From positions 1,696,001 to 1,760,000 of the forward strand of contig OZ242318.1 in NCBI GenBank assembly GCA_965208105.1: a stretch of DNA of 64,000 nucleotides, written 5' to 3'. A program made the position numbers and the translations under genes. Shown here piece by piece: positions 307 to 41,583 of this stretch (position 1 is its first letter; each line of letters opens with the position of its first letter). The notes beneath the pieces are model-generated. The model saw nothing but the letters and a program-made list of their open reading frames with translations, did no database searches and was not told the origin of the DNA. Origin of the DNA: Candidatus Latescibacterota bacterium (GTDB lineage Bacteria > Latescibacterota > UBA2968 > UBA8231).

Positions 307-3261
307 TTATAACAACGGTCCGAACTCGGTAAACCCGGTCAAGACCCGCACAAAGAACGACCAGGTATCATACTCCTCCCCCTGCCGCAACCGATCGTCG
401 TAGTCCAGGCTGTCCCCTTTGAGACCTATGATGGTGTGAAGATCGTATCCGCGGTAGGCGGAGCGGTTGGCAAGGGTGGCAAAGGCGGTGCGGCGCTCGA
501 GATTGTCGCGGTTCCGTACCCGGTCATGTCTTCTGTAGGGCAGTGCACCCAAACCTTGCAAGCCAACCCTCAAGGTGGTGCGTCGGAAAATGGGATACTT
601 GATGCGCAGGATGGGGATCAGACTGAGCTCCGAGCGCAGGGCCCGGGGTGCATAGGTACCGGTAACCAGGCGGTCCGCATCCTGGTCCACGTGATGCAGG
701 AGCAGGACTTTGCACTGCGGCCGAACCGTGAGGTTTCCCCAAATGACAGTGTACTCGGCCCGTTGAACCAAAGTCCAGTAGTCCAGCCTTCTGGCGCGCT
801 GATCCTCTTGACCCTGTTGCCAGTTGACCCGAAGCCTCCACTTGTTCACCCACCGCAGGGCGGACCACGGCTGCAGCTCCGCTTCGAGATAGATCTCGTT
901 GACGTAGCTATCCCGATAGGACAGGGGATCTGCCTGAATCTGACTAATGAAGGTTCGAGGGGTATTGTCATCTGGTAAAGTGGGATTCTGCGGTTGCTCA
1001 ACCAGAATAGCGAACTCATCGGCAATATCGTCCTCAACTCGCCGCATATAGTTTTCAAGGAGGAGACGCCAGCGCTCCCTGGTGTCCCGGCCGCGGAAGG
1101 TCAGCAGGGCATAGCTGGAGCGATTGCGCCCGTCACCGGCGACCTCCTCCACCGCAAAACGGCCGGCAGTTGCTGACCACCCGGATCTCGGTCCGACCTG
1201 CAGGAAGAGATGATACCCCCGCTGGCCGGGGAAATAGGGGTAGTCTGGACGGAGATCGTCTTCGCGGAAATCCGGCTCGTCGTTGTGGTTGCGATCCAAC
1301 CCGTAGACATACTCGTTCGGTTCCACCTCGAACATGAGAAATGGCTCTTCGTAGTCGGGTATGCGGTTGAAGTTGCGATTGGTGTCGGGAATACCGTCGC
1401 GGTCCTCGTCGCGGCCGGGGAAAACCCCGTCCGGATCGGTCGCTTCAAAATCAGGCACATGGCCAAGGGGCTGACCCATGCGCGTATCGGTGAAGCGGTC
1501 GCCGTCGTCGTTGTCCTGCACAAGCTGCCAGTACAGGGTGCGATTTCTCACTCCCTGTAGATGAATTGGAAAAAAGTCGGCCCCGGTGGGAAGATGGTGG
1601 CGGAGCTCGGTAGTGAAATCCGGCTGAATCGAGAAGTACTCCAGCCCCACGCGGCCGCGGTCCAACCTGCGAGCAGCATTTACGAAGTAGGCAGCCCCCG
1701 TTTCTCTGGAGCGGGATCCCTTTTCAAAAAAAGGCTTCTGCTCGACTTCGGCCGGATAGCGGGAGTAGCGCCGCGAGCGGGCCACCTCTCCGTGCACTTC
1801 CATACCCACAAGGCTCAGGTGGGCATCGGCGCTGTAGGTAAACAGGGCGGTATTTTCGCCCACCTCCAGTCGCACCCGTTGCAAATTGGAGCGGTCCTGC
1901 ACATTGCCCTTTGCCCGCAGCGCCGTGTGGTAATAGGTGGTATTGAACTGGGCGTAGCGCTTGCGGGCGCGAGGGTCCTCGTCGATCAAGGTGGCCACGT
2001 CCACCTTGTAGTCGTTGGACAGGACGACCTCCAGCTCCACCGATTCGACGAAGGGCTCCCGGGAAATGTCGAAGAGGTAGACGAGCTGGTCGTTTCCGTC
2101 GGCCTGCAGAACCTCGTCGGATGACTCAACTCGAAACAACTCGATCAAACTCTCCAGGTTCGTATCCGCGCTCACGTTTTCACCGTGCAGGTGGTCGATG
2201 CGGTAGAGATAGTCGGCGTACAAAGGCACTTCCCGGTTACGGTAGAAAAGGGAGGACTCAGTTTCACCCACGCTGCGAAACTGGTGGTAGGGAAAGGCGC
2301 GGAATTCACCAGTAGCTTGAGACACGGTTCCAACCTGGGAAGGGACGCCTGCCCGATGGCGAATCACCCGAGCCTGGAGGTCGGACCGCGGAACGCCGTT
2401 GACGATTAGCACGGGTTCCTGGACGACGGCTCCGCCGCGGCCGTCATCAGGGGAGTCGTCGGTAAATCGAAAGAGGACCCATCCGATGAGAGGCTGGCTG
2501 GGCCGTAACACGCCTTTCAAGGTGTTGCCGCTCGCGGTGCTGCGGAACATGTGCAGGTTGACGCCGGTAATTCCCAGTTGCAGTCTGCCCAGGTTTCCCT
2601 GCAAACGGCCTCCCAACAGCAGCGGGGAGGCGTCCGCAAACTCGGTGTTTTCGATGTACCAATTGGCACGTGCTACGCTATACCCCGGACGCTCCGGCCG
2701 GGAACCCAGCAAGGTGGCTTGGAGGGAGGGTGTGGCCAGGTCCACGCGCACCCCATCGAAATCGACCTTGGACAGGGTCAGCGGGGAGAAACGCGCAATT
2801 AGTGCATCTCCCAAAATTGCACTATAACCCCACGAACCCCGACTGTCCCGGGCAACAACAAGGTCGCCAAAAGCGTGCAAAAATACCCGGTAGTGTTTGA
2901 AGATCGAGCTGCCGTAGATATTGCCTCCGGCGGATGCTGCTTCTGGACCGCGCCGCTCGGTCCAGGCATAGAGATCATACCCGGTGGTGAGATAATCTCC
3001 CATGGAACTGTAAATGACTCGCGGCGCGTCGGAGTAGATCGTCCCGTCGGATCGGAACGCGGTGTGTCCCGGGTAGTTGGTGTAGGGCTGAAAGGCGAAG
3101 TTGCGATAGGAGGGAAGGGATGCCCTCAGGTAGAATTGCCGCGGCATTACCTCTGACAGGTGCACTTGTTGAGGTGGAGAAGCCCCGACCAGGATTGGAA
3201 AACAGACGAGGATGAGGAGGAATTGCCCAGCTGGGAGCAGTTTCGAGTTTTTTTCAATCAT
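307..3261 (-). CDS. Large secreted/outer-membrane protein of unknown family, paralog P1 (most divergent)
   Basis: 984 aa ORF with N-terminal hydrophobic signal; shares RFSPLTLSK, YWQLVQDNDDGDRF, GLDRNHNDEPD and C-terminal GFTEFG with four other genes in the window. Confidence 0.85.
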   Translation of the reverse strand: MIEKNSKLLPAGQFLLILVCFPILVGASPPQQVHLSEVMPRQFYLRASLPSYRNFAFQPYTNYPGHTAFRSDGTIYSDAPRVIYSSMGDYLTTGYDLYAWTERRGPEAASAGGNIYGSSIFKHYRVFLHAFGDLVVARDSRGSWGYSAILGDALIARFSPLTLSKVDFDGVRVDLATPSLQATLLGSRPERPGYSVARANWYIENTEFADASPLLLGGRLQGNLGRLQLGITGVNLHMFRSTASGNTLKGVLRPSQPLIGWVLFRFTDDSPDDGRGGAVVQEPVLIVNGVPRSDLQARVIRHRAGVPSQVGTVSQATGEFRAFPYHQFRSVGETESSLFYRNREVPLYADYLYRIDHLHGENVSADTNLESLIELFRVESSDEVLQADGNDQLVYLFDISREPFVESVELEVVLSNDYKVDVATLIDEDPRARKRYAQFNTTYYHTALRAKGNVQDRSNLQRVRLEVGENTALFTYSADAHLSLVGMEVHGEVARSRRYSRYPAEVEQKPFFEKGSRSRETGAAYFVNAARRLDRGRVGLEYFSIQPDFTTELRHHLPTGADFFPIHLQGVRNRTLYWQLVQDNDDGDRFTDTRMGQPLGHVPDFEATDPDGVFPGRDEDRDGIPDTNRNFNRIPDYEEPFLMFEVEPNEYVYGLDRNHNDEPDFREDDLRPDYPYFPGQRGYHLFLQVGPRSGWSATAGRFAVEEVAGDGRNRSSYALLTFRGRDTRERWRLLLENYMRRVEDDIADEFAILVEQPQNPTLPDDNTPRTFISQIQADPLSYRDSYVNEIYLEAELQPWSALRWVNKWRLRVNWQQGQEDQRARRLDYWTLVQRAEYTVIWGNLTVRPQCKVLLLHHVDQDADRLVTGTYAPRALRSELSLIPILRIKYPIFRRTTLRVGLQGLGALPYRRHDRVRNRDNLERRTAFATLANRSAYRGYDLHTIIGLKGDSLDYDDRLRQGEEYDTWSFFVRVLTGFTEFGPLL

Positions 3262-3355
3262 CAGGAGTGCCGGCCTTTACCCCGGATGCCAAGAAGCAAC
3301 TCAGTGCAAAACCCCAGGAGCCTAACTTCCTGCCGCGGAAAAAATAGCAATTGTC

Positions 3356-3384
3356 AAAATAATTTTAAACTGTTCCCATGTCAA
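3356..3384 (-). promoter_or_regulatory. Possible sigma70 promoter for P1
   Basis: TTGACA-N17-TATTTT on the minus strand in an AT-rich patch upstream of P1. Confidence 0.35.
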
Positions 3385-3480
3385 TAAAAACGGAACTTGC
3401 CCCTGGTGTGTTGCGATCCCCTTCAAAATTCACTCCAAACTATAACATCTTCTCGGAGGCAGCTGATTCCCGAACCCTGT

Positions 3481-4314
3481 TCATCCCCCCGCCGCCCGGA
3501 TGATCTCCGCGACCCTGTCGGCGAAGCGCAGCTGGCTGTCGTCCTCCGGCGCGTAGCCGATCACGCGGCGGGCATTGGCCAGGCTCCAGAAGTTGTGGGC
3601 GTTGCCGCTGATGCCGTAGAAGATCTGGAAGGGCACGCCGTCGGGGTCGCGGATGTCCTCGGTCTCAATGCTCCTGACCACCAGTTGCACCTGGTCGCGC
3701 ACGCTGAGGTAGGCCCCCAGGCCGCGGTGCATCTTCTGCAGATCCCCGGGGTCGCAGTTGTCCATGTCCGTTTCCCGGGGACCGCCGATGCGCAGCTGCA
3801 CGTTCTCCAGCGCCGGCCCTTCCTTGCCGCAGGCAAAGAGGAAGCCCAGGAGCTCGTAGGAGGCCTTGGCCCAGCCGTAGAAGTTGTCCGACCGGGGCAG
3901 CATGCCGGGGGTGACGAAGTCCAGCCGCCCCGACCAGATCAGGTTCTCGTAGTAGTCGGCGGCGTGGTTGGAGCTGATGATCACCGCCCGCCGCACGCCC
4001 TCCTCCTGGCACACCCGGTAGACGTTGTGGGCCATGGTGATATTGTCGGACTCGGTCCAGAAGCGCTGCTTACCTTCGGCGCTGCGGACGAAGCCGCAGT
4101 GGACCACGGCGTCGGCTCCGCTGAAGTAGCGGCGGTAGGCGTCGCGGTCGCGCTCCAGCAGGTCGACGGTCTGAATTCTCCTCACTTCCCGTCCTTCGCG
4201 GTCGGTCCTTTTCACGTCCAGAAGCACGGTATCGTAGCGCTCCTGCAGTGCCGGCAGCATGCGTCCGGCGACGTAGCCCGCGGCTCCGGTGACGACGATT
4301 GTGCGCTTTTTCAT
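3481..4314 (-). CDS. NAD-dependent epimerase/dehydratase (extended SDR, uronate dehydrogenase-like)
   Basis: MKKRTIVVTGAAGYVAG Rossmann motif, SSNHA, catalytic YGWAK; start moved to ATG 4314 (RBS GAGGTGGAG). Confidence 0.85.
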   Translation of the reverse strand: MKKRTIVVTGAAGYVAGRMLPALQERYDTVLLDVKRTDREGREVRRIQTVDLLERDRDAYRRYFSGADAVVHCGFVRSAEGKQRFWTESDNITMAHNVYRVCQEEGVRRAVIISSNHAADYYENLIWSGRLDFVTPGMLPRSDNFYGWAKASYELLGFLFACGKEGPALENVQLRIGGPRETDMDNCDPGDLQKMHRGLGAYLSVRDQVQLVVRSIETEDIRDPDGVPFQIFYGISGNAHNFWSLANARRVIGYAPEDDSQLRFADRVAEIIRAAGG

Positions 4315-4361
4315 GGTCTCCACCTCGATTGGGGGTTTGAGTTGAAGGTTGCGATGCGCCG

Positions 4362-4383
4362 GCGTCCCTGCCGGCAGGGACGC
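4362..4383. repeat. Perfect 22-bp palindrome (REP-like) in divergent intergenic region
   Basis: GCGTCCCTGCCGGCAGGGACGC is its own reverse complement. Confidence 0.5.
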
Positions 4384-4527
4384 AGCCCTTTCAGCCAGCC
4401 GCATGTCCGTACGCCCCGGAAAACAGAGGCCTGCGGTGCGTCGCCGGCCCTGGCGCCCCAGCTTTCCAACACCGCCCAGGCGCCTTATCATTCAGATATT
4501 GAAGAATATACCAATCAGGGGAGCCCC

Positions 4528-5949
4528 TTGAACATCCGCCTCAAAAGATCCCACCTTCTGGTTCTGCTTTTGGCGGCTGCCTGCGCCGCCGCCCTCGTCC
4601 TGCTCAGGCCCTCCCCGCCGGCAACTCCCCCCGAGCTGCCCCAGGTCCTGCTGGGGAAGGACCCCGGCGTGGTCGCCCTGGTCGAAAAGGTCCTGGCCGA
4701 GGTGGCCGCCGATCCCAGCAACCCGGAGCTGCGCATGCGCCTGGGCTACGCCTACGAGGCCAATTTCCTCGACTCCCTCGCCCTGCTGAGCTATGAGCAG
4801 GCCCTTGCCTCCGATGCCGCCAGGCCCCGCTGGTGGTACCGCCTGGCCAGGGTCAAGACCCGGCTGGGGGACCGTTCCGGGGCCGTTGCCGCCGCCGAGC
4901 GCGCCGCCGCCTTGCATGCCGATCACGCGCCCCTGCACTGGCGCCTGGGATTCTGGTACCTGGACCAGGGCCAGCTCGAGAAGGCCCGAAGCTCCTTCGA
5001 CCGCGCCAGTGCCCTGAAGCCCGACGCCGCCCCCGGGCACTGGGGGCTCGCCCGGGTCATGCTGCAGAGCCGCCGCCCCGAGCGCGCCGCGGCCATCCTA
5101 GAAGCCCTTTTGGAGCGAAGGCCCGACGACGCCTACGCCCGCCTGCTCCTGGGGACCGCCTACCGCCAAATGGGGCGGCCGGGGGATGCCAGGCTCGAGC
5201 TCGAGCGCGGCGCCGGCGCATCCCCCAGGTGGCGCGACGCCTGGGACGAGGAGATGGACAGCTACCGGCAGGGGCTGGTGGTGGAGCTGGGCAAGGCAAC
5301 CCGCCTCGCCGACGAAGGCCGGCCCGACGCGGCCATCCCCATTATGGAGGAGCTGTGCAGGAAGTACCCCCAGGACCCGCGCCTCTTCGACAGGCTCGGC
5401 GGCCTCTACCTCGAAACGCAGCGCTACAAGCAGGCCCTGTCCACCTTCGAGGAGGGGCTTAGACACCATCCAGACAATGCCTGGTTCCACCTGAAATCGG
5501 GAGCCCTGCAGGCGGAGATGGGCAATCATGCCGAGGCCCTGGGGAGCCTGGACCGGGCGGTCGCCCTCGACTCCACCCTGGGTGCGGCGCACCAGAGACG
5601 GGGCCGGGTTCTGATGGAGACGCGGCGCCACGCCGAAGCCGCCGAAGCCTTCGCCCGGGCCCTGCGCCAAGATCCCCGCAACGCCACCCTCCACCTGGAG
5701 CTGGGCCTGGCCCGCTACGAGCTCGGGCAGTTCGCCGCCGGGCTGGTCAATTTGCGCCGCGCGGTGGAGCTCGACTCGACCCGCGCCCGGACCTTCGTCG
5801 CCCTGGGCCTGACCCAGGCGAGGCTGGGCGCCCTCGACGGCGCCCAGCGGTCGCTGCGGCGCGCCGCCGCCCTCGAACCCCATTTCCCCCGGTTGGGAGC
5901 CTACCAGGACCAGGTGCGGGAGATGCGAAGCCAGGGGAGCGATCCGTGA
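4528..5949 (+). CDS. Tetratricopeptide-repeat protein with N-terminal membrane anchor/signal
   Basis: TTG start after GGGGAG; hydrophobic LLVLLLAAACAAALVLL followed by many TPR units; the upstream part of the 850-aa ORF is antisense shadow of the SDR gene. Confidence 0.85.
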   Translation: MNIRLKRSHLLVLLLAAACAAALVLLRPSPPATPPELPQVLLGKDPGVVALVEKVLAEVAADPSNPELRMRLGYAYEANFLDSLALLSYEQALASDAARPRWWYRLARVKTRLGDRSGAVAAAERAAALHADHAPLHWRLGFWYLDQGQLEKARSSFDRASALKPDAAPGHWGLARVMLQSRRPERAAAILEALLERRPDDAYARLLLGTAYRQMGRPGDARLELERGAGASPRWRDAWDEEMDSYRQGLVVELGKATRLADEGRPDAAIPIMEELCRKYPQDPRLFDRLGGLYLETQRYKQALSTFEEGLRHHPDNAWFHLKSGALQAEMGNHAEALGSLDRAVALDSTLGAAHQRRGRVLMETRRHAEAAEAFARALRQDPRNATLHLELGLARYELGQFAAGLVNLRRAVELDSTRARTFVALGLTQARLGALDGAQRSLRRAAALEPHFPRLGAYQDQVREMRSQGSDP

Positions 5950-7697
5950 AGTTCCCGGCCGATGTAGGCTATGTGGCCCTGCTCGTTTCCTCTCTCCTCG
6001 CCAGCGGCTGCGGCTCCATTGGGGAGGACCGGGAGCCGGCGGGAGAAGAAGGCAAGCCGGACCCCGCGCCCTGGTTCGATGAGGTGGCCGCAGCGCGCGG
6101 GATCGATTTCGTCTTCGAGTCCGGACACCGGGAGCGCCACTACATGCCCGAGAGCATGGCCGGCGGCGGAGCCCTCTTCGACATGGACGGGGACGGGGAC
6201 CTGGACGCCTACCTGGTGCAGGGGGGAAGGCTGGACGCCCTCCCCCGGGAGCGCCCCGGCAACCGGCTCTACCGCAACCTGGGTGGAGGCCGCTTCGCCG
6301 ACGTCACCGCAGGCAGCGGCGCCGACGACCGCGGCTACGGCATGGGGGCGGCCACCGGCGACTACGACAACGACGGCGACATGGACCTCTACGTCACCAA
6401 CGTGGGCGCCAACGTGCTGCTGCAGAACCAGGGCGGGGGACGCTTCGCCGACGTCACCGCATCCGCCGCCGTCGGCGATACCGCGTGGGGGGCGAGCGCC
6501 ATGTTCCTCGACTACGACAACGACGGCGACCTCGACCTCTTCGCCACCAACTACGTCACCTGGTCCATCCACCGCGACAAGGTCTGCCTGGGGCCGCTGG
6601 GGGCCCCCACCTACTGTCCCCCGGGACGCTCCAGGTGGAGCAATCCCACTCCCGACGTTCTCTATCGCAACAACGGCGACGGCACCTTCTCCGACGTTTC
6701 CGCGGAGTCGGGCATAGCCTCGGCCAAAGGCAACGGTCTCGGGGTGGTCAGCGGCGACTTTGACAACGACGGCCGCACCGATATCTTTGTCGCCAACGAC
6801 GGCACCGTGAACCACCTCTGGCTCAACCAGGGAGACGGCAGCTTCGTCGAGGACGCCATGCTGCGCGGCTGCGCCCGCGACGAGAGCGGCCAGGTCAAGG
6901 CCGGCATGGGGGTGGCCTCCGAGGACGTGGACGGCGACCTCAACTTCGACCTGCTGGTGGTCAACCTGCGCCAGCAAACGGATTCATTCTACCGCAACCG
7001 GGGAGCGTTCTTCAGCGACGAGACCGCGGCCGCGGGACTGGTCCTGGACAGCTTCGCCCTGACCCGCTTCGGGGTCGGGTTCACCGACTTCGACAACGAC
7101 GGGCTGCTGGACCTGTACATCGCCAACGGCCGCATCGACAACAGCAACAAAGTGATGTTCTCCTCCGATATCTTCGCCGAGCCCAACCTGCTGCTGCGCG
7201 GCCGACCGGGACTGCGCTTCCAGAAGGTGGAGCCCATGGGCGGGACCCGCGAGCTCCTGGTGCACACCAGCCGCGCCGCGGCCTTCGGCGACGTGGACGA
7301 CGACGGCGGCGTCGACGTGCTGGTGGTAAACCGCGACGGCCCCACCTACCTGCTGCGCAACGCGGTGGGAGGCAGGGGCGCCTGGATTGCCTTCGAGGTG
7401 CTCGATGCCGGGGGCAGCCCCTCCCTGGGCGCCAGACTCACCTTCAAGGTGGAAGAAAGGAAACTGATCAGGGAGGTGCGCACCGCCTACAGCTACCTGG
7501 CCGCCAGCGACCCCCGCGTTCACGTGGGCCTGGGCGGCGCCGGCGGGGTGTCGGAGGTGGAGGTGCGCTGGCCCGAGGGGCAAAGGGAATGGTTCGGCGA
7601 TTACGAGGCCGGCCAACGGGTGGTGCTGCGCCGCGGCCTCGGGCGAACCGGGCACCAGGCCGGCGCGAATGCAGCCAGCGTCCCGTCGCAGAGATAG
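5946..7697 (+). CDS. CRTAC1-family lipoprotein (FG-GAP/VCBS repeats + ASPIC/UnbV domain)
   Basis: Lipobox LASGC; repeated DxDxDGDxDL motifs; C-terminal SYLAASDPRVHVGLG...EVRWP; GTGA overlap with the TPR gene. Confidence 0.9.
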   Translation: MKFPADVGYVALLVSSLLASGCGSIGEDREPAGEEGKPDPAPWFDEVAAARGIDFVFESGHRERHYMPESMAGGGALFDMDGDGDLDAYLVQGGRLDALPRERPGNRLYRNLGGGRFADVTAGSGADDRGYGMGAATGDYDNDGDMDLYVTNVGANVLLQNQGGGRFADVTASAAVGDTAWGASAMFLDYDNDGDLDLFATNYVTWSIHRDKVCLGPLGAPTYCPPGRSRWSNPTPDVLYRNNGDGTFSDVSAESGIASAKGNGLGVVSGDFDNDGRTDIFVANDGTVNHLWLNQGDGSFVEDAMLRGCARDESGQVKAGMGVASEDVDGDLNFDLLVVNLRQQTDSFYRNRGAFFSDETAAAGLVLDSFALTRFGVGFTDFDNDGLLDLYIANGRIDNSNKVMFSSDIFAEPNLLLRGRPGLRFQKVEPMGGTRELLVHTSRAAAFGDVDDDGGVDVLVVNRDGPTYLLRNAVGGRGAWIAFEVLDAGGSPSLGARLTFKVEERKLIREVRTAYSYLAASDPRVHVGLGGAGGVSEVEVRWPEGQREWFGDYEAGQRVVLRRGLGRTGHQAGANAASVPSQR

Positions 7698-7733
7698 GTT
7701 GACGAAATTGGGCCGCCGAGGGGCCCGGCTCAC
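7677..7733 (+). repeat. Degenerate copy of the MITE-like element left end
   Basis: cagcGTCCCGTCGCAGAGATAgGT...CCGCCGA...CCCGGCTCAC matches the element ends at 15785-15843 and 33977-34035. Confidence 0.55.
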
Positions 7734-7754
7734 AAACGCAACAGGAGAGACGCC

Positions 7755-8576
7755 ATGAAGACCGAACTGAGGCAGGAGCAGATCGATTCCTACCAGCGCG
7801 AAGGCTGGATCATCGTCGAGGACTTCCTCGACGCCGCAGAGCTGCAGGAGCTCTGCGACGGGGTGGAGGAATCGGTGCGGCAGATGGGCAACAGAAAGAT
7901 CACCGGCAAGGGCAACGAGATGATCGTCGACGGCAGGGACGAGTACTACGATCGGGTCTTCCTGCAGCGCCTGAACATGTGGAGGATCAACCCCACGGTC
8001 AGGAAGTACATGCTCGACCCCGGGCTCGGGGAGATGCTCTGCAAGCTCTCCGGAAACGACGGCATCCGCGTGTGGCACGACCAGACTCTGCAAAAGCGTC
8101 CCTGGGACAACCCCACCTCGTGGCACATAGACGTTCCCAACTGGTCATTCCACTCGCCCAACGCCATCTCCATCTGGATCGCCATGGACGACGCCACCGT
8201 CCAGAACGGCTGTCTCTACTACATTCCCGGCTCGCACAAGATCGCCAAATACGAAAAGAAGGGTCACTTTCGCCACCAGATCGACTTCCTCTTCGAGGAG
8301 TACCCCGAGTTCCGCCGCATCGAGCCGGTGGCCGCCGCCATGAAAGCCGGCTCGGCGGGCATCCACAACGGCCTCATGGCGCACGCGGCCGGACCGAACA
8401 TGACTCATTCCCCGCGCCGCGCCATGACCTGCGCCTACATGCCCGACGGTGCGGTCTTCAACGGCATTCCGAACATCCTCACCGACGAGCAGGTGGCCTC
8501 TCTCAACCCCGGCGACCCGCTCGACGACGAGAGCCAGACCCCCCTGGTGTGGTCGCGCCACAAGGCCCCGGCCTGA
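7755..8576 (+). CDS. Phytanoyl-CoA dioxygenase (PhyH) family Fe(II)/2OG oxygenase
   Basis: YQREGWIIVEDFL start, WHID (HxD) motif, NGCLYYIPGSH, distal His in LMAH. Confidence 0.9.
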   Translation: MKTELRQEQIDSYQREGWIIVEDFLDAAELQELCDGVEESVRQMGNRKITGKGNEMIVDGRDEYYDRVFLQRLNMWRINPTVRKYMLDPGLGEMLCKLSGNDGIRVWHDQTLQKRPWDNPTSWHIDVPNWSFHSPNAISIWIAMDDATVQNGCLYYIPGSHKIAKYEKKGHFRHQIDFLFEEYPEFRRIEPVAAAMKAGSAGIHNGLMAHAAGPNMTHSPRRAMTCAYMPDGAVFNGIPNILTDEQVASLNPGDPLDDESQTPLVWSRHKAPA

Positions 8577-8705
8577 TGGCTCTCGCCCGGTCCGGGAATG
8601 GCAGCCGACGACCGGGATTCCCGGGAAGTTTCAGCTTGGCCGCCGGTCCGCGGCGGCGGAGCGGAATGCCTGCCGGATCCCTGACAACCAGGAGGTGATC
8701 GACCC

Positions 8706-9494
8706 ATGCTCAGCCTTTCGGCGGACGACATCCGCTTCTTCAAAAGGGAAGGTTACCTGGTAAAGCGCGGCGTCCTCGATCCCGCGCTCATGGAGCGGGC
8801 GCGGGAGGCCATGTGGGAGGCGGCTCCTCCCGAGCTCGACCGCGACGATCCGGACACCTGGATCGGACCTCTGCCCAAGCGCAGCGACGAACACCGGAAC
8901 TACATCAGCGGCTACTACTGGAAATACCGCCAGATCGGCGCCGAGGACTGGATGGTGCGGCTGCTGGCCACCGACCCTTCGGTCTGGTGCGCCGCCGAGC
9001 GCCTGCTGGGCAAGAGCACCCTGCAGCAGCCCGAGCGCGTGCGCGGCATCTACTGCAACCTGCCAGAGGGCGGCGCTCCGGACAGCCCCCGCACCTGCCA
9101 CCTCGACGGCCACCCATTCCACCTCGGAGTGGTGGGCTATATCGACCGGGTTCCACCCCTGGGCGGCGGTTTCAAAGTCTGGGCCGGCAGCCACCGGCGC
9201 TTCTACTTCGACTATCACTGCCGCTACGGCAACCGCCCCACGGCGGACCTGGAGGAGGACCTGGCCTTCTACAACCGCCGCCCCTGCGTCGACATCGACG
9301 GCGAGGCCGGTGACGTCGTGTTCTGGCACCACCGCCTCGGACACGGATCGGGCCACAACCGCTCGCGCCGGATCCGCCTGGCGGTGTTCCACGACTACCT
9401 CAAGAAGGACCTGGACGAGAAGGTGGAGGCTCCCCTGCCCGAGGACATGTGGGAGGACTGGTCGGAGGAAGTCCGGAACGCTGACGCCTATTGA
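8706..9494 (+). CDS. PhyH family dioxygenase
   Basis: FFKREGYLVKRGVL, CHLD, GGFKVWAGSH, GDVVFWHHRLGH. Confidence 0.85.
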   Translation: MLSLSADDIRFFKREGYLVKRGVLDPALMERAREAMWEAAPPELDRDDPDTWIGPLPKRSDEHRNYISGYYWKYRQIGAEDWMVRLLATDPSVWCAAERLLGKSTLQQPERVRGIYCNLPEGGAPDSPRTCHLDGHPFHLGVVGYIDRVPPLGGGFKVWAGSHRRFYFDYHCRYGNRPTADLEEDLAFYNRRPCVDIDGEAGDVVFWHHRLGHGSGHNRSRRIRLAVFHDYLKKDLDEKVEAPLPEDMWEDWSEEVRNADAY

Positions 9495-10627: not shown

Positions 10628-10643
10628 TGCCTCGTTCCTTTCG

Positions 10644-12098
10644 CTATTGCCTGTGGGAGCCGACCCGGTAGGAGTACAGGCTGGCGGCGTTGTCCGCCTG
10701 CATGTGCAGCCGGATCCTCCTGCCGATGAAGGGAGTCAGGTCGCGGCGCTCCTTCCCCCAGGTGATCTCGAAGTCGGTGGAGTCGCCCCGCACCAGCCCG
10801 TTGCACTCATCCAGCGAGTAGCCCCCGGGCACCTCCATGTCGTCGACGACCCGCAGGCGCAGTTGGCCGAAGAGCACCAGGGCGTTGACCGAGAGCCGCG
10901 GTCCGCCGACGAGAATGGGCTCGGTCATCAGCTCGCCTCCGCCGATGCCGCAGCGCATCGCGGCGAAGGCGTCCCTGCGCAGGGTCAGCATTCCGATGGA
11001 ACTGTGGAAGTTGCCCCCGGTTCCGTGTCCCTGGGGTTTGCCAGAGTAGCCCATGTAGAGGGTGTCCCCTTTCAGGGCGGGCGCGCTCAGGCCGCAGGCC
11101 GCCCAGCCGCCGTCCCATGATCCGGGAGGACCCACCGAAAAAAACTCCTCGCGGCGGCCGACCCGCTGCCAGTGCTCGACCTCGCGCGCCGAGGCCAGCT
11201 CCATGGCGCTCAGCTCGGTGGGATGCCAGACCCACAGTACGCCCAGGTACTGGTTGCCGTAGACGAAGGGCACCATCTGGTAGAGCTGGATGTCGGGGGG
11301 GTCCATGTCGTCCGGTTTGAGCACGGTCTTCAGTGGGGTCCAGTGGACGAAGTCGGCGCTGGTGGACAGGGCGATTACGCGGCGGTACTTCTTCCACTCC
11401 AGGACGAAGTGGTCCATGAGGGAGTTGTAGCGCCGCGAGGCGGAGATGTAGCCCTGCCCGATGGGATCGCAGGCCAGCACCCCGGCGTCGCCGGCGCGCG
11501 GGACCAGGAGCCCCTCCTCCGGGTTCCAGTGGATCCCGTCGGCGGAGCAGCAGGCGAACATGCCGTGGCTGTCGGCCACCGACTTCATGAAAAGGCCCCG
11601 GGCCTGGGGGTCCTCCGGACCCGGGCTTCCCCCGGGCTGAATGTACAGACCCAGCTTGTAGCGCCGCGCCGGGTCCTCTTCCAGGGGGTCCACCACAACC
11701 CCCCAGGGGTCGCCCCTGGTGGCCAGCACGATGTTGTTGTCCTTGGACCCACGGAACTCGACCAGGCCCAGCTCGGGCCGCTCCCAGCGGACGCCGTCGC
11801 TGGAGGTGGCGTAGCAGAGGAAGGTGGGAGCGCCGGCGTGCATCTCCTCGATGCTGCAGGACCAGGTCCAGTACCACATCTTGAAGAGGTTTTCCTCCGC
11901 CTCGTAGTGCAGGCCGCCCTTGATCTGCACGGTGCGGCCCTCCCATGGCCGTTCCGGCCTCAGCACCGGCTCCGTCTGCACCCTCGCGGGTCGCTGCACC
12001 TTGCGCAGAAAGCCGGGATGGTCCTGCACCTCGGCGTCGTCGACGAAGAGGTGCAATCCGGGGTCGTAGAGACCGCTCCCGTTTCCGTCCTCTGTCAT
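10644..12098 (-). CDS. Five-bladed beta-propeller glycoside-hydrolase-like protein
   Basis: LFVDD, PERPWE, YATSSDGVRWERPELG, SADGIHW, C-terminal LRRDAFAA/GELMTEP domain; no signal peptide. Confidence 0.7.
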   Translation of the reverse strand: MTEDGNGSGLYDPGLHLFVDDAEVQDHPGFLRKVQRPARVQTEPVLRPERPWEGRTVQIKGGLHYEAEENLFKMWYWTWSCSIEEMHAGAPTFLCYATSSDGVRWERPELGLVEFRGSKDNNIVLATRGDPWGVVVDPLEEDPARRYKLGLYIQPGGSPGPEDPQARGLFMKSVADSHGMFACCSADGIHWNPEEGLLVPRAGDAGVLACDPIGQGYISASRRYNSLMDHFVLEWKKYRRVIALSTSADFVHWTPLKTVLKPDDMDPPDIQLYQMVPFVYGNQYLGVLWVWHPTELSAMELASAREVEHWQRVGRREEFFSVGPPGSWDGGWAACGLSAPALKGDTLYMGYSGKPQGHGTGGNFHSSIGMLTLRRDAFAAMRCGIGGGELMTEPILVGGPRLSVNALVLFGQLRLRVVDDMEVPGGYSLDECNGLVRGDSTDFEITWGKERRDLTPFIGRRIRLHMQADNAASLYSYRVGSHRQ

Positions 12099-12174: not shown

Positions 12175-12924
12175 TCACTCGGGACCTTCCTCCTCCATCC
12201 GCATGAGGGTGGACTCGTCGCGCCAGCGCGGACTGGTCTTCTCCATCTCCCTGGTGCGCCGGGCCAGGCACGAGCAGTTCTGCGCCAGCACCTCGAAGAT
12301 CCGGTTGGCGACGATGCGGTGCCCCAGGTCGTTGGCGTGCACCCCGTCGTAGTGGATCATCCAGTCGGTCTCGGCGTATGCGTCGAGCAGGTCGACGAAG
12401 AGACAGTCCTCCTCCGCCGCCACCGCGGCTATTCCCCGGCTGTAGTCCCTGAAAATTTCCAGGTTGGCATGGCCGTATCCTCCCTCCCTGCCCACCTCGA
12501 AATCCCACATGTAGTAGGGCCCGGGCAACACGATCACCGGGTCCAGCCTGGCGCGCACCCGCCGCACCAGGCTCACCATCACCTCCCGGAACAGGGACCA
12601 CGACGTGCCGCCGCGGGCGTCGTTGAGCCCGTAGGAGATGACCAGCAGATCGGGGGCCTGGTCGATGACGTGGCGCTGCAGGCGCTCGTCCGCCGCCGGC
12701 TTGCCGCTGGTGGCGTAGGCGGGCGACCTGCTCGAGATCAGGTTGGCCCCGATTCCGGCGTTGAAGACCTCCAGGGGCCGCTCCTGGAAATCGTCGATCA
12801 GGGCCGCCAGCCTGGGCACCCAGCAGCGCTCCGGCGAGGTGGACCATCCTCCCGCCGTCGTGCTCTCCCCCAGGGCGACGAACCTGTTGAACTCCCCGGA
12901 GCGGTAGTCCCTTTTCGCGACCAT
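12175..12924 (-). CDS. SGNH/GDSL hydrolase
   Basis: ALGESTTAG (block I), NAGIG, YGLND, DGVHAN. Confidence 0.9.
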   Translation of the reverse strand: MVAKRDYRSGEFNRFVALGESTTAGGWSTSPERCWVPRLAALIDDFQERPLEVFNAGIGANLISSRSPAYATSGKPAADERLQRHVIDQAPDLLVISYGLNDARGGTSWSLFREVMVSLVRRVRARLDPVIVLPGPYYMWDFEVGREGGYGHANLEIFRDYSRGIAAVAAEEDCLFVDLLDAYAETDWMIHYDGVHANDLGHRIVANRIFEVLAQNCSCLARRTREMEKTSPRWRDESTLMRMEEEGPE

Positions 12925-12925
12925 C

Positions 12926-14197: not shown

Positions 14198-14222
14198 TTT
14201 GACTCCTTGTCGTTTCCCGAGG

Positions 14223-15722
14223 TCAGCCGCCTTCGTCCACGTAAACGGCGTAAACCCGGGCGTCTTCAGCCCTGATTCCCTCCCACTTGACCCGGATGCG
14301 CACCGGGTGGTCGAATCCCTCCAACTCCTCCCGGCGGCGCCAGGTTACCGGGAGACGCATACCCTCCCCTCCGATGGGAACGCAGTCCTCCCCCGAGTAG
14401 CCGGGCATCGGCTCGAACTCGCGATTGAGGACCTCTACCCTCAGGCTGCTGTGGGGGGAGCAGGCCGCGTTCAGGTAGACCCGGGCCCCGGCCCGGGTAA
14501 GCTCGATGGGGCACGAAATGCAGTGGGGCGGCTCGATGTCTTCGGCCTCTCCGGGCGGAACGGACCCGGGCGAAGGGGCGAGAAACCCCATGCGGTCCCG
14601 GGGCCAGGTGGCCAGGCGCACCCCGGTGCGGCGCGGCGGATCGTAGCGCCAGACTCCGTACCAGAACAGGGTGCGCTCGCCCTCGTTGGCGAACCCCTGG
14701 CCCTGCAGCAGCCGCGGGGGACCATCGTCGAGCTCCTCGTAGTACGGAACGAACTTGAAATCGGGCACGGGCTCCCTGAAGTGCATGGCGTCGTTGCTGG
14801 TCACCATGCCCAGATCGCAGGTGCCGTAGCGCCGGTCGTTGGTCTCGTTGTGGTACTGCCCGTAGATGCCGACGAGCACGTTGCCCCTGTTCCACAGAGA
14901 GGCGCCCATGTGCACCTGCTCGCCGCGGTGGAGCTCGAAATCGGTGGGCGGATGGGGCGGCACCGGGTCGCGCCGGAATCCCGGGACCACGGCCTGGGTC
15001 CAGTGATCGAAGTCATAGGAAGCGTAGGTGGCCAGGGTGCGCTTGCGGGCTCCCCTGATGGGATGGGCCACGCTGCCCCCCTGTCCATTCAGGTAGTAGC
15101 AGCCGCCGAAGCTGACGAGGCCGCCGGGCTCCAGCGAGTTGCCCCTCAGTATGGGGTTGTGGGGCGATTGCTCCCAGCGCAGTCCGTCAGCGCTGAAGGC
15201 GGCGCGGATGTCGCTGGGGTCAACCTCGTAGACCATCTTGAAGCGCCGTCCGGGATTGGGGTCTTCCGGCTCGTGGATGACCAGAACGAAGTTGGCCATT
15301 TGATCCAGGGGCTGCCCGGCCTCGGCGAACCTCACCAAGTTGTTGGCCTTGTGTCCGTCGTAGTCCACCAGGCCGAGCTCGGTTTTCTCCCACTCCATGC
15401 CGTCCCTGGACCGGGCATGGCACACCCGCCGGACCTCGTCTTCGCCGCGGCCCAGGTACCACATCCTGAATTCGCCGTCGACCCGCAGCACGCTGCCGTA
15501 GTAGCACACCTCGCGGCAGTCGGGATCGCCGGGTCCGCCCTCGGGCACCACCACCTTGCCCGGGTGGTCCGGATCGAATCCGTGTCCCGAATTGAAATTG
15601 CTCTTGTGTCCGGGAACGAGCTCCAGCAGCAGCCCCTTGTTGAAGGGCAGGGAATAGGTGTCGAAGGAAAACAGGACCGCCTCGTCGATGGACTGCGCCG
15701 GTCCGCCATTGTGAAGTATCAC
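14223..15722 (-). CDS. Five-bladed beta-propeller glycoside-hydrolase-like protein
   Basis: FRMWYLG, HARSRDGMEWEKTELG, SADGLRW, C-terminal RDRMG...LNA...LRVEV domain. Confidence 0.7.
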   Translation of the reverse strand: MILHNGGPAQSIDEAVLFSFDTYSLPFNKGLLLELVPGHKSNFNSGHGFDPDHPGKVVVPEGGPGDPDCREVCYYGSVLRVDGEFRMWYLGRGEDEVRRVCHARSRDGMEWEKTELGLVDYDGHKANNLVRFAEAGQPLDQMANFVLVIHEPEDPNPGRRFKMVYEVDPSDIRAAFSADGLRWEQSPHNPILRGNSLEPGGLVSFGGCYYLNGQGGSVAHPIRGARKRTLATYASYDFDHWTQAVVPGFRRDPVPPHPPTDFELHRGEQVHMGASLWNRGNVLVGIYGQYHNETNDRRYGTCDLGMVTSNDAMHFREPVPDFKFVPYYEELDDGPPRLLQGQGFANEGERTLFWYGVWRYDPPRRTGVRLATWPRDRMGFLAPSPGSVPPGEAEDIEPPHCISCPIELTRAGARVYLNAACSPHSSLRVEVLNREFEPMPGYSGEDCVPIGGEGMRLPVTWRRREELEGFDHPVRIRVKWEGIRAEDARVYAVYVDEGG

Positions 15723-18831: not shown

Positions 18832-18917
18832 CTTGCCTCAATCCGGGAAAAACCGCCTGGCGAAAATTTACTGCAATGCATCAATGCGGAACCTTCAGGC
18901 GGCCCCCGGTGCAGGCC

Positions 18918-21905: not shown

Positions 21906-22103
21906 AACCTCTATATACAAAATGCAGATGGATAATCCAACAGAAAAGGCGGCGGCTCGCGGTTCGAGGTGCGGAGGGTGTCACGGGCAGGCCTGAACGG
22001 GCGCCCCGCCAACTCCTGGCCCCAAAGGAATGCGCAGACCGAGGGCAGCCCCGGATGAGGGAATTCCCCGTTGGGAGGATCCGCGCGGGATGGTGCCCGG
22101 GGC

Positions 22104-25298: not shown

Positions 25299-25327
25299 TT
25301 GCACCTGCCAGCAAGCGAGCCTATAAT
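25299..25327 (+). promoter_or_regulatory. sigma70-type promoter for the ThDP enzyme gene
   Basis: TTGCAC-N17-TATAAT about 90 bp upstream of ATG 25420. Confidence 0.65.
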
Positions 25328-25419
25328 GTCTGCAGAGGCACGGTCGGACCGCTTCGGCGCACGGTTTTCCGGCCGGAAAAGGCAAGTGAGACCGAAACCT
25401 ACCGTGAGGAAAATTTGAA

Positions 25420-27084: not shown

Positions 27085-27096
27085 ACGGAATCCAAC

Positions 27097-29937
27097 CTAC
27101 CACAGATAGGCCGCTCGACGGGCGCGATCCGCCGCCTGGCGGCGCTCCAGGGCGGCCTCCACCGACCGCACCAGGGGCGATCCCCGCGCAAGCCGGGGAA
27201 GCCCATCGATCCATTGCCGCAGCTCCGGGGCGCGCAGATGGACGTGGTAGTCCGCCCACCTTTCGATCCAGGCCGACCCGGCCGATCCATGATGGGGGTC
27301 TGCGTCGATCGCCCGGCGCAGATAGGCCAGACTGGACTCGAAGTCGGGGCCGTGCAACTGGGCGACGCGCAGTGCCGACTCGGCCCGCTCCGACCTGAAG
27401 CGGGAGCGGTCATGCGCATCCTCGGCCGCGGCGAGGGCTGCCGGTGAGGGCACGTGGTAGCGGGAGAGGGCGCGGGCGCGCTCCTCGTCGAGCTCGGCCG
27501 CGTCCAGGGGCTCGAGGAAGTAACGCTGCAGCTCCCCGAACGGAGTGCGCGGCAGCACCGCGAAGGAGATTTCCGCCAGACGTCCTCCCCGGTAGCGCCG
27601 CAACAACTGGCGGTCGCCGCTGGAGTAGCTCAGGCGTTGGTCGTCGTCCCGGTAGACATAGGGCGCCTGCATGCGGGCGATATCGTCGGGCCCGGTGGTG
27701 ATCAGCGCCAGGATTCCCTCCACAGAGGCTGTCCCGTGGCGGCAGTCCCCGGTCCAGCGCTTGCTGGCAATATGGGGCTCCCGGGCCAGCACCCGGGCGC
27801 GCTCCTCGATCCAGGCGGTGCTGAACCGCGGCGGGTCCACGCCCTTGAAGCTCAGGGTGACGAAGTCCATCGGCCCCATGCGAACGATGAAGGTGTGGGA
27901 GAACACCGCCGCCTGGGTCTTCACCAGGCAGCGGGTCTCGTTGGGGGTGAGGTGGTAGAGCGGGACCCACTGCACCAGCACCCCGTCGCGGCGCAGCACC
28001 CGGTCCACCGCGCGGTAGAACTCCAGGGAGTAGAGCGGGTGGACTCCTTCCGCGGTTGGAGGCGGAGGCTCCATGGAAACCACGTCGTAGGAGCCCGGCG
28101 CGGCGCGCTCGACGAAATGGCGGCCGTCGTCCAGGTGGATGGACACCCGCGGATCGTCCCCCAGGCCCGCGTTGAACTCGGCGAAGTGATCGAGGGCCAT
28201 GGAGATCATCTCCGCGGAGATGTCGACCACGTCCATGTGTTCGACGGGATAGCGCAACAGGGCCCCGAAGGACTGTCCCGAGCCCATGGCTATGCCCAGG
28301 ACGCGGCGCGGCGTCCCTTCCTGCGGGTAGAATAGCGCCGGCAGGTGCCCCTCGATCACCTGGACGGGAAGCTCTCCCCGGCGCACCACCGCCAGAATCT
28401 GGTTGCCCGCGGCGATGTAGCGGTTCTTCGGCCCGGCAAAGACCGACGCGGTGGTCAGGGGTCCCTCGACCAGATCGACGAGCCCGGCGTCGTCCACCTG
28501 CCTGCCCACTCCCTCGGTGCTCACCACCTCCCGGCTGAGATCGCCTTGCATGAAGTATATCCCCACCGCCAGCGCCAGGGCGCCCAGAGCGTGACCCCAG
28601 CCGATGTTCCAGCGCCCGCCGCGTCCGCTTTCGAGACTCAACCTGCTCTCGGCCGCCGCGCCCAGCGCCAGGGTCACCAGGGTCAATGCGAACAGCGCCC
28701 CTGCGAGACCGAATGCAGGTATCAGCACATAACCGGCGGCGAATCCCCCGGCGCTGGCCCCCACCGTGTTCCAGAACACCAGGCGCCCGGAGGCGCGCCG
28801 CAACCCGGCGCTGTGCCTGGTTGAGGCGGCGATGAGGCCGGGCAGGGCCGTTCCCAGCAGCAGCACGGGAAGGAATATCACCAGTCCCACCTGGAAAAGG
28901 GGGGCGAAGAAGGTGTAGTCGGCGGCCTCGCTGGCGAAGTACCAGCTGGGTTCCACCGCGAACCCTTTGCCGGTAATGCCGTAGTCGGCCAGGATCCACC
29001 AGTCCAGGCTGAAGAGCACGAGCAGGGCGGCGATGGGCTGCAGCAGGGCCACCACCCGCAGAGGGCGGACCCCAGTGGCCAGCAAACGCCCCATCGCAAT
29101 GCTTCCCAGGGCGAGGGCGGCGAGGAACACCGCCAGCAGAATGGCGGTGAGATAGACGCTTGCGGTTTTGAACAGGGAGAAGTAGCGCGCCCAGGCCACC
29201 TGGTAGCCGATGGCCGCAAACCCGGAAAGGAGAGCCAGGACGCAGAAGAACGCGCCCGGGCCCGGCGCGCGCGCGCCGGCCGTTGCCGGCAGGTGCAGCG
29301 GCGGGGTGCGCCGGAAGGCGAGGAGCGCCATGGCGGCGATGGCGAGATTTCCCGCGCCGGCGGCCATGCTGGTGCCGTTCATCCCGAGGGAAGGGATGGC
29401 CAGGTAACCGGTGAGGAGGACGCCGAACACCGCGCCGGCGATGTTGAGTCCGTAGAGAACGCTGGTATGGGACCCCACCGAGGCGTCGCGCTCCACCAGG
29501 CCGTCGAGGAGCAGGGGCAGGGTCCCGCCCATGAAGAACGTGGGCAGGAGGAAGAGGAAGAAAAGCAGTCCGAAGCGCAGCAGGAAGAGGGCGGCGGCGC
29601 TGCCGGCGGCCACCCCGTAGAGCGAGGCGTAGGCGCTCTCCACGCAGGCGTAGAGCAGCGGAAAGGCGAAGGCGTAGATACCTATGCCGGCTTCGAAGAG
29701 CCCGTAGACGAAGAGCGGCGAGTAGCGGCGGCTGCGCCAGTACTTCCCCACGACCAGACTGCCGAGGGCAAGTCCGAGAAAGAAGCTGGTGAGCACTGTC
29801 GACAGGGCGATCTGGCTCGCTCCCACCACCAGGGCGGCCTTGCGGATCCACACCAGCTGGTAGCCCAGGCCGAGGGCCCCCGAGAGAAAGAACAGGATGG
29901 CGGCGAGCAGAATCGGGCCCCGGAGCGCCGCGCTCAT
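27097..29937 (-). CDS. Fused MFS-like membrane / spermidine-synthase-like SAM-dependent protein
   Basis: Two hydrophobic repeats (FLSGALGLGYQLVW; LSGFAAIGYQVAW), then RVLGIAMGSG, VVDIS, DDGRHF, DVVSMEPP, LYSLEFY. Confidence 0.85.
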   Translation of the reverse strand: MSAALRGPILLAAILFFLSGALGLGYQLVWIRKAALVVGASQIALSTVLTSFFLGLALGSLVVGKYWRSRRYSPLFVYGLFEAGIGIYAFAFPLLYACVESAYASLYGVAAGSAAALFLLRFGLLFFLFLLPTFFMGGTLPLLLDGLVERDASVGSHTSVLYGLNIAGAVFGVLLTGYLAIPSLGMNGTSMAAGAGNLAIAAMALLAFRRTPPLHLPATAGARAPGPGAFFCVLALLSGFAAIGYQVAWARYFSLFKTASVYLTAILLAVFLAALALGSIAMGRLLATGVRPLRVVALLQPIAALLVLFSLDWWILADYGITGKGFAVEPSWYFASEAADYTFFAPLFQVGLVIFLPVLLLGTALPGLIAASTRHSAGLRRASGRLVFWNTVGASAGGFAAGYVLIPAFGLAGALFALTLVTLALGAAAESRLSLESGRGGRWNIGWGHALGALALAVGIYFMQGDLSREVVSTEGVGRQVDDAGLVDLVEGPLTTASVFAGPKNRYIAAGNQILAVVRRGELPVQVIEGHLPALFYPQEGTPRRVLGIAMGSGQSFGALLRYPVEHMDVVDISAEMISMALDHFAEFNAGLGDDPRVSIHLDDGRHFVERAAPGSYDVVSMEPPPPTAEGVHPLYSLEFYRAVDRVLRRDGVLVQWVPLYHLTPNETRCLVKTQAAVFSHTFIVRMGPMDFVTLSFKGVDPPRFSTAWIEERARVLAREPHIASKRWTGDCRHGTASVEGILALITTGPDDIARMQAPYVYRDDDQRLSYSSGDRQLLRRYRGGRLAEISFAVLPRTPFGELQRYFLEPLDAAELDEERARALSRYHVPSPAALAAAEDAHDRSRFRSERAESALRVAQLHGPDFESSLAYLRRAIDADPHHGSAGSAWIERWADYHVHLRAPELRQWIDGLPRLARGSPLVRSVEAALERRQAADRARRAAYLW

Positions 29938-29989
29938 GGAAGCTCCGCAGGGATGAGACCGGGAACGAGCGTGGCCATCATGAACCGCT

Positions 29990-30865: not shown

Positions 30866-31039
30866 ATTTTCCTTTCCCTCCTATTTTCTTATTTTGGAAC
30901 CTCAAAGATAGGACCTTTGCGAGGGCAGGCCAATTCGGGGACAGACGGACCCCAGGATAGCCGCAGGGACAACCGGGACCGCCGGGATAATCCCGGAATC
31001 ACCTTACCTCCATCTGCTGCGCAACAGCGAGATCTGACC

Positions 31040-41567: not shown

Positions 41568-41583
41568 TCCAGAGGGGGCAACT

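Follow-up and report, generated by a model that had tools for sequence, protein, structure and literature searches.

A 64-kb stretch of contig OZ242318.1 from a Candidatus Latescibacterota bacterium (the window, by which we mean this stretch at its full length) carries five genes, P1 to P5, for proteins of about 1000 residues that clearly resemble one another. What kind of protein do these genes encode, and what might it do for the cell? How bacteria bring complex organic matter across the outer membrane is known mainly from the SusC/SusD and TonB-dependent systems of cultured phyla. In answer to the first question, there is good support for assigning P1 to P5, with their predicted export by the Sec pathway, to a family of outer-membrane β-barrels that has so far gone undescribed, in which one very large chain forms about 30 strands in a structure model.

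Five intact and colinear paralogs

An earlier note on this DNA had described five colinear paralogs with signal-like N-termini, taking up about a quarter of the window. All five are indeed intact open reading frames (ORFs) of 974 to 996 codons, their products are 51–64% identical, and the genes, about 14.8 kb in all, fill 23% of the window. The G+C content of the region is about 0.64–0.70, and at third codon positions it is 0.83–0.87 in all five paralog frames, which marks them as coding. A five-way alignment is colinear across 1027 columns with a mean column identity of 71%; identity to P1 is 51–53%, and P2 shares 61–64% of its residues with P3 to P5. Similarity of this order goes far beyond chance. 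The motifs that had been quoted are all present with minor variants, in the forms RPFLRW, GYDLY.W.E, F(S/T)PLTLS, F(S/T/A)DDSP.DG.GGA.VQE, FTYSAD (FVYSAD in P3), YW..V.DNDDGDR, Y(Q/R)DSYVNE.YLE, IPILR and, at the C-terminus, GF(T/S)EFG.

P4, P3 and P2 lie in this order on the same strand as a tandem array, with a gap of about 185–200 bp between P4 and P3 and of 87 bp between P3, the upstream gene, and P2. Judged by eye, the N-termini of all five proteins resemble Sec signal peptides, with basic and hydrophobic stretches and a site of small residues; a Kyte–Doolittle scan flagged the N-terminal segment in P1 and P2 only and found no hydrophobic helix past the N-terminus of any paralog.

Relationship to known families

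Pfam returned the same single match for all five paralogs, PF21620 (SlpA_C), the barrel domain of the Deinococcus protein SlpA. This match stays below the gathering score (14.3–26.4 bits against a cut-off of 35; expect values (E) of 2.9e-6 to 0.014) and is partial, covering profile positions ~192–304 of 656, or about 110 positions. None of the five was matched in the NCBIfam scan. A PDB sequence search with a profile of the 5 sequences gave only noise (a nanobody at E 0.6, GAPDH at E 1.3), and one with a profile of 43 sequences gave no match at all. The Pfam models for the TonB-dependent plug (Plug, PF07715), the TonB-dependent barrel (PF00593) and the SLH domain had no match in the five paralogs at E <= 1, and neither the OmpA-like domain nor the MtrB_PioB, Slam and SprA models matched any of them. 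The family was thus rightly called unrecognised, as the Pfam, NCBIfam and PDB sequence searches gave no confident full-length match to a characterised one.

Relatives are numerous and practically nameless. A word-indexed homology search found 264, and the 120 listed are 915–1030 residues long; the only name that any source gives them is 'hypothetical protein' (10 of the 120), and a precomputed PF21620 label is attached, by our own count, to 33 of them. When 1.84 billion cluster representatives were scanned in full by HMMER with the 43-sequence profile, 744 clusters matched at E <= 1e-3, 507 at E <= 1e-10 and 225 at E <= 1e-30. In the distant full-length members the best match mostly starts near profile position 370, so that the N-terminal third appears least conserved across the wider family. 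Among 22 such distant members scanned with Pfam, 18 had no match, two had a weak SlpA_C match, one a weak phage-tail match, and one was a chimera with Receptor L/LRR domains. The neighbours in the ESM Atlas are all unnamed clusters from Gemmatimonadota or Latescibacterota. DUF6029, the nearest named Atlas cluster, was considered as a family name and dropped: its score of 0.89 is below the trusted level and Pfam gave no DUF6029 match.

Literature searches on outer-membrane β-barrels (judged by title and abstract) or sulfatases and polysaccharides in Latescibacter*, and on novel barrels in Gemmatimonad*, turned up no description of the family. A metabolic study of the phylum Latescibacterota mentions, in its accessible portions, only 'non-specific porins' (PMC4454575). 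Outer-membrane β-barrels as a kind are known; this family, its architecture and its genomic role are without description in the libraries and literature searched.

A predicted barrel of about 30 strands

AlphaFold2, run on P2 with an input alignment of 43 sequences, gave a model with a mean predicted local distance difference test score (pLDDT) of 73.3 and a predicted template-modelling score (pTM) of 0.73. A helix of residues 14–25 corresponds to the signal peptide, and residues 138–581 and 682–989 are modelled almost wholly as long β-hairpins; DSSP assigns 29 strands of at least 7 residues between residues 138 and 989. The earlier note had placed the strands in the C-terminal 300 residues or so; they are found there but are not confined to that part, being predicted from about residue 138 to residue 989. 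Residues ~292–392 form a confidently folded insert of short strands and two helices. The N-terminal 136 residues and much of 587–677 are modelled with low confidence. The model contains no coiled-coil stalk, its longest helices having 12 (residues 14–25) and 11 residues (350–360).

A Foldseek search of the PDB with this model gave 20 matches at E <= 0.001, and all those listed are outer-membrane barrels. The best is MtrB (6r2q chain B; E 2.9e-8, TM-score 0.31 on the target), followed at ranks 2–4 by SlpA entries (E 1.4e-7, 2.6e-6 and 9.3e-6); OmpG, BtuB, FptA, FpvA, Fiu, LptD, FimD, OprP and SprA translocon chains are also among them. The inference of an outer-membrane β-barrel, which the earlier note had drawn from strand-like sequence patterns, is therefore borne out by the model, and a soluble fold, looked for as the finding that would overturn it, did not appear.

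Some features speak against too literal a use of this model. The TM-scores to solved large barrels are low (0.19–0.31), as is to be expected with differing strand numbers, and the match is accordingly to the class of barrels and not to a specific family. The alignment behind the model is shallow, with 43 sequences that are all at least 51% identical, and we infer, rather than see directly, the closure of the barrel, the number of its strands and the placement of its inserts. The last strand ends in ...GF(T/S)EF and is followed by four further residues (GRPI, GRAI, GRPL or GPLL). In an end such as ...GFTEFGRPI the terminal residue is not aromatic, which makes the β-signal for the barrel assembly machinery (BAM) non-canonical; the end of the last strand looks like such a signal, yet it is not terminal.

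The SlpA matches raise the alternative that the family is an SlpA/OmpM-like envelope scaffold. The barrel would then be abundant and would give order to the outer membrane or anchor it to the cell wall, and the paralogs would be variants of it. Both SlpA (Deinococcus-Thermus; PF21620; PDB 8ae1, 7zgx) and the present family are very large single-chain barrels, SlpA with 28–30 strands and the family with about 30 by DSSP, and they share a weak sequence similarity over a few hairpins besides the structural matches. PF21620 is also the sole curated link at the sequence level. Acidic, possibly metal-binding inserts may be a further common trait, as the accessible part of the SlpA report describes metal-binding inserts in the SlpA lumen (PMC9388160). 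On the other hand, the family lacks an SLH domain, an OmpA-like domain and a coiled coil, and the Pfam link is the partial, sub-threshold match described above. SlpA occurs in one or two copies per genome, according to the same portion of that report (PMC9388160), whereas the present family reaches up to 24 diverged copies per genome in different catabolic islands, a distribution that fits substrate specialisation better. We consider a scaffold improbable.

Conserved segments of the barrel

The most conserved part of the family is an acidic insert (P2 residues 582–681) with 47 of its 100 columns at least 95% conserved in the 43 sequences. It contains 24 Asp, 8 Glu and 6 Arg but no Lys, and pLDDT is below 50 over much of 587–677. 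The likeness of its motifs to DxDxDG suggests that it probably binds Ca2+. Scanned alone, this insert and the N-terminal segment described below had no Pfam match at E <= 10, nor did the acidic insert have a PDB sequence match, so it cannot be assigned to the thrombospondin-type, dockerin or EF-hand domains. The N-terminal segment (residues 45–137) precedes the first confident strand; 17 of its 93 columns are at least 95% conserved in the same sequences and its pLDDT is below 50. Together with the folded insert at 292–392, these two segments may decorate or constrict the lumen.

The N-terminal segment could also be read as a plug that contacts TonB or another energiser, which would make the family a new type of energised transporter, a non-canonical analogue of SusC and the TonB-dependent transporters. 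Its conservation, though it has no confident model, would suit such a role, and BtuB, FptA, FpvA and Fiu are among the Foldseek matches. The genomic logic is also like that of SusC: as in polysaccharide utilization loci (PULs), a multiplied barrel gene stands beside genes for surface proteins, an inner-membrane permease and degradative enzymes. However, the family lacks a plug match, a TonB-dependent barrel signature and a SusD partner: among the 34 window proteins covered by our Pfam scan and 103 neighbour ORFs of 12 related loci, no SusD-like lipoprotein was found. Moreover, the third of the protein that would hold the plug is the one least conserved in distant relatives, which match mostly from about position 370. 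TonB-dependent transporters have 22 strands, and the family barrel would be larger with about 30. An energised transporter of this kind therefore seems to us a poor candidate.

Distribution and copy number

A scan of one genome per species found a relative in 228 of 395 matching stretches, and the best 80 of these 228 yielded 69 loci. They come from 17 metagenome-assembled genomes (MAGs); 50 loci are labelled Candidatus Latescibacterota, 16 Gemmatimonadota, and 3 are unlabelled. Some loci that carry the label Gemmatimonadetes share their gene order with loci labelled Latescibacterota, as L039 does with L033. The first 25 kb of the window have their ortholog in L001, with the same gene order and a protein identity of 84–90%, which places the window in a genome of Latescibacterota type.

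Counting distinct ORFs of at least 700 residues that match the family profile, we find 112 distinct copies in the 69 loci and the window. Four MAGs have at least 24, 19, 18 and 16 copies, and nine others at least 3, in keeping with the lineage expansion suggested earlier. An uncultured phylum thus spends at least 50–70 kb per genome on a barrel family that has neither a curated model nor a name. One copy in L023 is split into two ORFs (361 and 508 residues; 16352–18954 and 19367–20758) followed by a DDE transposase gene, and is probably a disrupted copy.

In a midpoint-rooted FastTree tree of 104 distinct full-length copies (106 minus 2 duplicates from overlapping loci), the three copies of eight syntenic loci (L033, L034, L037–L039 and L042–L044) fall into three deep clades as positional orthologs. 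The triples of L007, L009 and L012 are younger and likewise orthologous by position. P2, P4 and P5 share one subclade with their L001 orthologs, and P1 sits in another clade. The orthology by position argues that the arrays are maintained and are not merely transient duplications; one may speculate that conserved arrays of two or three paralogs reflect hetero-oligomers or a division of labour.

The neighbourhood of the barrel genes

The array P4-P3-P2 is followed on the same strand, 119 bp beyond P2, by a gene for a 499-residue protein and then by genes for an amidohydrolase, a GDSL esterase, a 484-residue protein and a second amidohydrolase (Table 1). P5 is likewise the first gene of a run on one strand, being followed by genes for a GFO/IDH/MocA oxidoreductase, a HEAT-PhyH protein, a DUF6785/DUF6784 permease and a PhyH-like protein. 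Farther along the window, Pfam identified a sulfatase, GHL6, BNR and GH113 enzymes and a second DUF6785 gene.

Table 1. Coordinates of the barrel paralogs, conserved segments of P2 and neighbouring genes in the window, with the number of related loci (of 69) holding relatives of the neighbours
Feature	Position	Strand	Length (aa)	Related loci	Remarks
P1	307..3261	-	984		most divergent of the five; divergent from the TPR and FG-GAP/ASPIC gene pair; translation, alignment
TPR-repeat protein	3397..5949	+		3	upstream of the FG-GAP/ASPIC gene; Pfam
FG-GAP/ASPIC (UnbV) repeat protein	5946..7697	+		18	Pfam
Probable glycosidase-like protein	10644..12098	-	484	35	same recurrent family as the 499-residue protein
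Probable glycosidase-like protein	14223..15722	-	499	10	directly downstream of P2
P2	15841..18831	-	996		copy used for structure modelling; last gene of the P4-P3-P2 array
Acidic insert of P2	16789..17088	-			residues 582-681; motifs DNDDGD, DEDNDG, DRNHNDEPD
Conserved N-terminal segment of P2	18421..18699	-			residues 45-137; RP.LRWERP.YRN.A ... GYDLY.W.E
P3	18918..21905	-	995		length from ATG; middle gene of array; ORF extendable to TTG at 21920
P4	22104..25028	-	974		first gene of array; open frame continues to 25385
P5	31040..33979	+	979		open frame from 30125; heads a same-strand gene run
DUF6785/DUF6784 polytopic membrane protein	37098..39038	+	646	24 (family)	Pfam E 1.5e-115 and 7.9e-32
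Second DUF6785/DUF6784 membrane protein	53562..55610	-	682		start codon uncertain; Pfam
Probable glycosidase-like protein	55447..57195	+	582	33	length as ORF; true start probably further in

Many of these genes recur. In tblastn searches of the 69 loci with the window proteins, the most widespread neighbours were the 484- and 582-residue proteins and DUF6785/DUF6784, followed by FG-GAP/ASPIC proteins; sulfatases were found in 10 loci, and relatives of the PhyH protein at 7755–8576 and Xylose-isomerase-like TIM barrels in 8 each. The Pfam scan of the 103 neighbour ORFs added enolase-superfamily proteins, PIG-L deacetylases, FAD and molybdopterin oxidoreductases, an amidase and an MGH1-like hydrolase.

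The 499-, 484- and 582-residue proteins match overlapping places in the related loci and thus form one family, often present in several copies. All three lack a signal peptide, and Pfam matched none of them even at E <= 5. In the ESM Atlas the clusters nearest to the 484-residue protein, which serve as leads only, are 'Glycosyl hydrolase family 32 N-terminal domain-containing' and BNR/sialidase clusters, and by these cluster names the three proteins probably represent a new β-propeller glycosidase-like family. They had also been considered as SusD-like partners of the barrel; this was discarded, as they lack signal peptides and the Atlas names point to glycosidases. Over 164 bp (55447–55610) the ORF of the 582-residue protein overlaps, head to head, with that of the second DUF6785 gene, so at least one of the two starts is set too far upstream.

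The FG-GAP/ASPIC protein of the window has a hydrophobic N-terminus ending in Cys and is possibly a lipoprotein; in related loci its relatives adjoin a barrel gene in L018, L058 and L063. The window holds four genes for PhyH-type 2-oxoglutarate dioxygenases, one of them a HEAT-PhyH fusion, among 7755–9494, 35543–37024 and 44456–45439, besides a weak fifth match at 39119–40021, and three Amidohydro_2 genes; the pairing of PhyH with Amidohydro_2 recurs in related loci.

A candidate inner-membrane partner

The DUF6785/DUF6784 protein encoded at 37098–39038 has 11 hydrophobic segments. AlphaFold2, using 19 sequences from the window and the related loci, predicts an all-helical structure (pLDDT 71.5, pTM 0.78) that Foldseek matches to the barley Yellow Stripe 1 (YS1) transporter, entry 7wst chain A (E 3.1e-6, TM-scores 0.61 and 0.65). 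A second entry follows (7wsr chain A, E 5.6e-6), with TM-scores of 0.60–0.65 over both, and the next matches have E values above 0.06, which leaves Yellow Stripe 1 as the one clear match. In this model the protein has the oligopeptide transporter (OPT) fold of Yellow Stripe 1. It resembles the OPT/Yellow Stripe-like transporters in fold, in size and in its polytopic helical build; unlike them, it matches only its own DUF6785 and DUF6784 models in Pfam at E <= 0.001, the OPT model giving no match, and a PDB sequence search with it found nothing. A literature search on DUF6785 likewise returned nothing. The YS1-like fold offers a clue to what DUF6785 and DUF6784, two Pfam families without a known function, may do, and the protein is a candidate inner-membrane partner of the barrel.

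Its gene is directly adjacent to and co-directional with a barrel gene in L013, L015, L027 and L031. After removal of nine redundant syntenic loci, 16 of the remaining 60 contain DUF6785. These hold 19 such genes. Within 1.6 kb of a barrel gene we find 63% of them, where placing them at random in those loci would give 35%, and 12 share the strand of the nearby family member. We regard the association of the barrel with DUF6785 and the other neighbours as suggestive. A conserved small gene in the gap of about 1.2 kb between barrel and DUF6785 genes was looked for and rejected, the contents of the gap being different from case to case (FAD oxidoreductase, molybdopterin oxidoreductase, enolase-superfamily, TPR). 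In L065 a DUF6785 gene beside two barrel genes (12875–15025, minus strand) is broken into two ORFs by an in-frame stop and is either a pseudogene or an assembly error.

A proposed role in uptake

The receptor or channel function that the earlier note attached to the barrel is one that we, too, infer from gene context. Uptake through a channel is the most economical reading, since each genome contains many diverged copies, each in a different catabolic island, since the neighbours often include inner-membrane proteins with a transporter fold as well as surface proteins that are secreted or anchored by a lipid, and since peptidoglycan-binding and coiled-coil parts are absent. On these grounds we lean slightly towards the view that each copy serves as the outer-membrane gate of a substrate-specific uptake-and-degrade island with a logic like that of PULs. 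In such an island, the FG-GAP/ASPIC putative lipoproteins or, in related genomes, proteins of about 650 residues with a sorting tail would handle the polymer outside the cell, and the barrel would admit the resulting oligomers to the periplasm. The OPT-fold DUF6785/DUF6784 permease would then move them over the inner membrane, and enzymes lacking signal peptides would break them down in the cytoplasm, namely the glycosidase-like family, PhyH dioxygenases, amidohydrolases, GFO/IDH/MocA oxidoreductases and members of the enolase superfamily. Sulfatases likewise recur in the barrel islands.

A fuller version of this scheme, which we put forward tentatively and think rather doubtful in its entirety, would describe a route of import across two membranes in Latescibacterota that was not known before. 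The barrel, with about 30 strands, no plug and an acidic constriction loaded with Ca2+, present in up to two dozen copies per genome and sometimes assembled from three conserved paralogs, would replace the SusC-type receptor as the gate of PUL-like islands and hand oligomers to the uncharacterised OPT-fold DUF6785/DUF6784 permease.

Several observations count against uptake as the function. No DUF6785 gene occurs within 10 kb in 44 of the 60 non-redundant loci, and the genes between barrel and neighbours vary from locus to locus. Proximity inside the loci is only modestly above random, other neighbour families being little nearer than random placement (32% against 27% within 1.6 kb for the glycosidase-like family). 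The presence of such neighbours within 10 kb may partly reflect genomes that are dense in DUF6785, glycosidase-like and sulfatase genes. Finally, there is a TonB-dependent-type barrel (PF00593) at 2939–4387 of L055, and hence at least one in these genomes, so that the family need not be there to make up for a missing function.

The surface proteins mentioned above suggest another possibility, namely that the barrel does not form an uptake pore but serves as a platform at which sorting-tail proteins or FG-GAP/ASPIC putative lipoproteins dock or are exported. Large barrels with such tasks exist: MtrB sheathes MtrA/MtrC, Slam exports lipoproteins, and SprA with PorV handles type IX cargo. The Foldseek results agree with a platform insofar as MtrB ranks first and SprA translocon chains are also matched, MtrB/PioB being, like the family, a large plug-less barrel. 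The neighbour ORFs include proteins of about 650 residues that end in FlgD_ig/Por_Secre_tail, the type IX secretion sorting signal in Pfam. A profile of four such sequences found 26 full-length ORFs in 25 of the 69 loci, one more copy cut at a locus end and 16 further ORFs with the tail only; full-length genes stand directly beside a barrel gene in several loci (L023, L047, L045 and L062), as do the FG-GAP/ASPIC genes in the three loci given above. Examples of these ORFs, with an unannotated body, are L013:2522–4498, L023:7795–9888, L047:7819–9777 and L055:16284–18269.

Yet the window has five barrel genes and no ORF that matches the sorting-tail profile, and 44 of the 69 loci are without a full-length one. 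The paralogs share no sequence match with MtrB_PioB, Slam or SprA, and P2 has 996 residues against 649 in MtrB. No multihaem cytochrome, the partner of MtrB, is encoded among the 34 window proteins scanned; among the 103 neighbour ORFs of the 12 related loci there is a single NapC/NirT-type ORF, 8 kb away and in L010 only. A platform would also be compatible with uptake, since SusC does both. As the sole function of the barrel it appears unlikely to us, though less so than the scaffold or the energised transporter.

If the barrels are indeed the gates of catabolic islands, they would stand for a new class of transporters, a function could be given to DUF6785/DUF6784, and substrate-specific loci in Latescibacterota genomes could be found by the barrel genes as they are by SusC/D pairs in Bacteroidota. 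Research on barrel assembly and nanopore engineering would likewise have an interest in a barrel that builds about 30 strands from one chain and carries an invariant acidic insert.

Other features of the window

The 64-kb window contains no tRNA genes. Between the P4 and P5 regions, an ORF on the minus strand (27097–29937) encodes a protein of 946 residues, in which about 10 hydrophobic segments at the N-terminal end precede a domain like spermidine/spermine synthase. Two stretches differ from their surroundings in base composition. One, at 40218–42387 on the plus strand, has a G+C content of 0.55–0.58 against about 0.65 and holds a type II restriction-modification pair, a methyltransferase (40218–41567) and a restriction enzyme (41659–42387; PADLOC REase_II, E 1.2e-110). 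The other, at 48400–53200 with a G+C content of 0.51–0.55, encodes a 329-residue helix-turn-helix protein and a 706-residue ResIII/helicase protein whose likeness is to methyl-directed restriction enzymes of type IV (E 7.1e-27). This second stretch is probably a defence island that was acquired.

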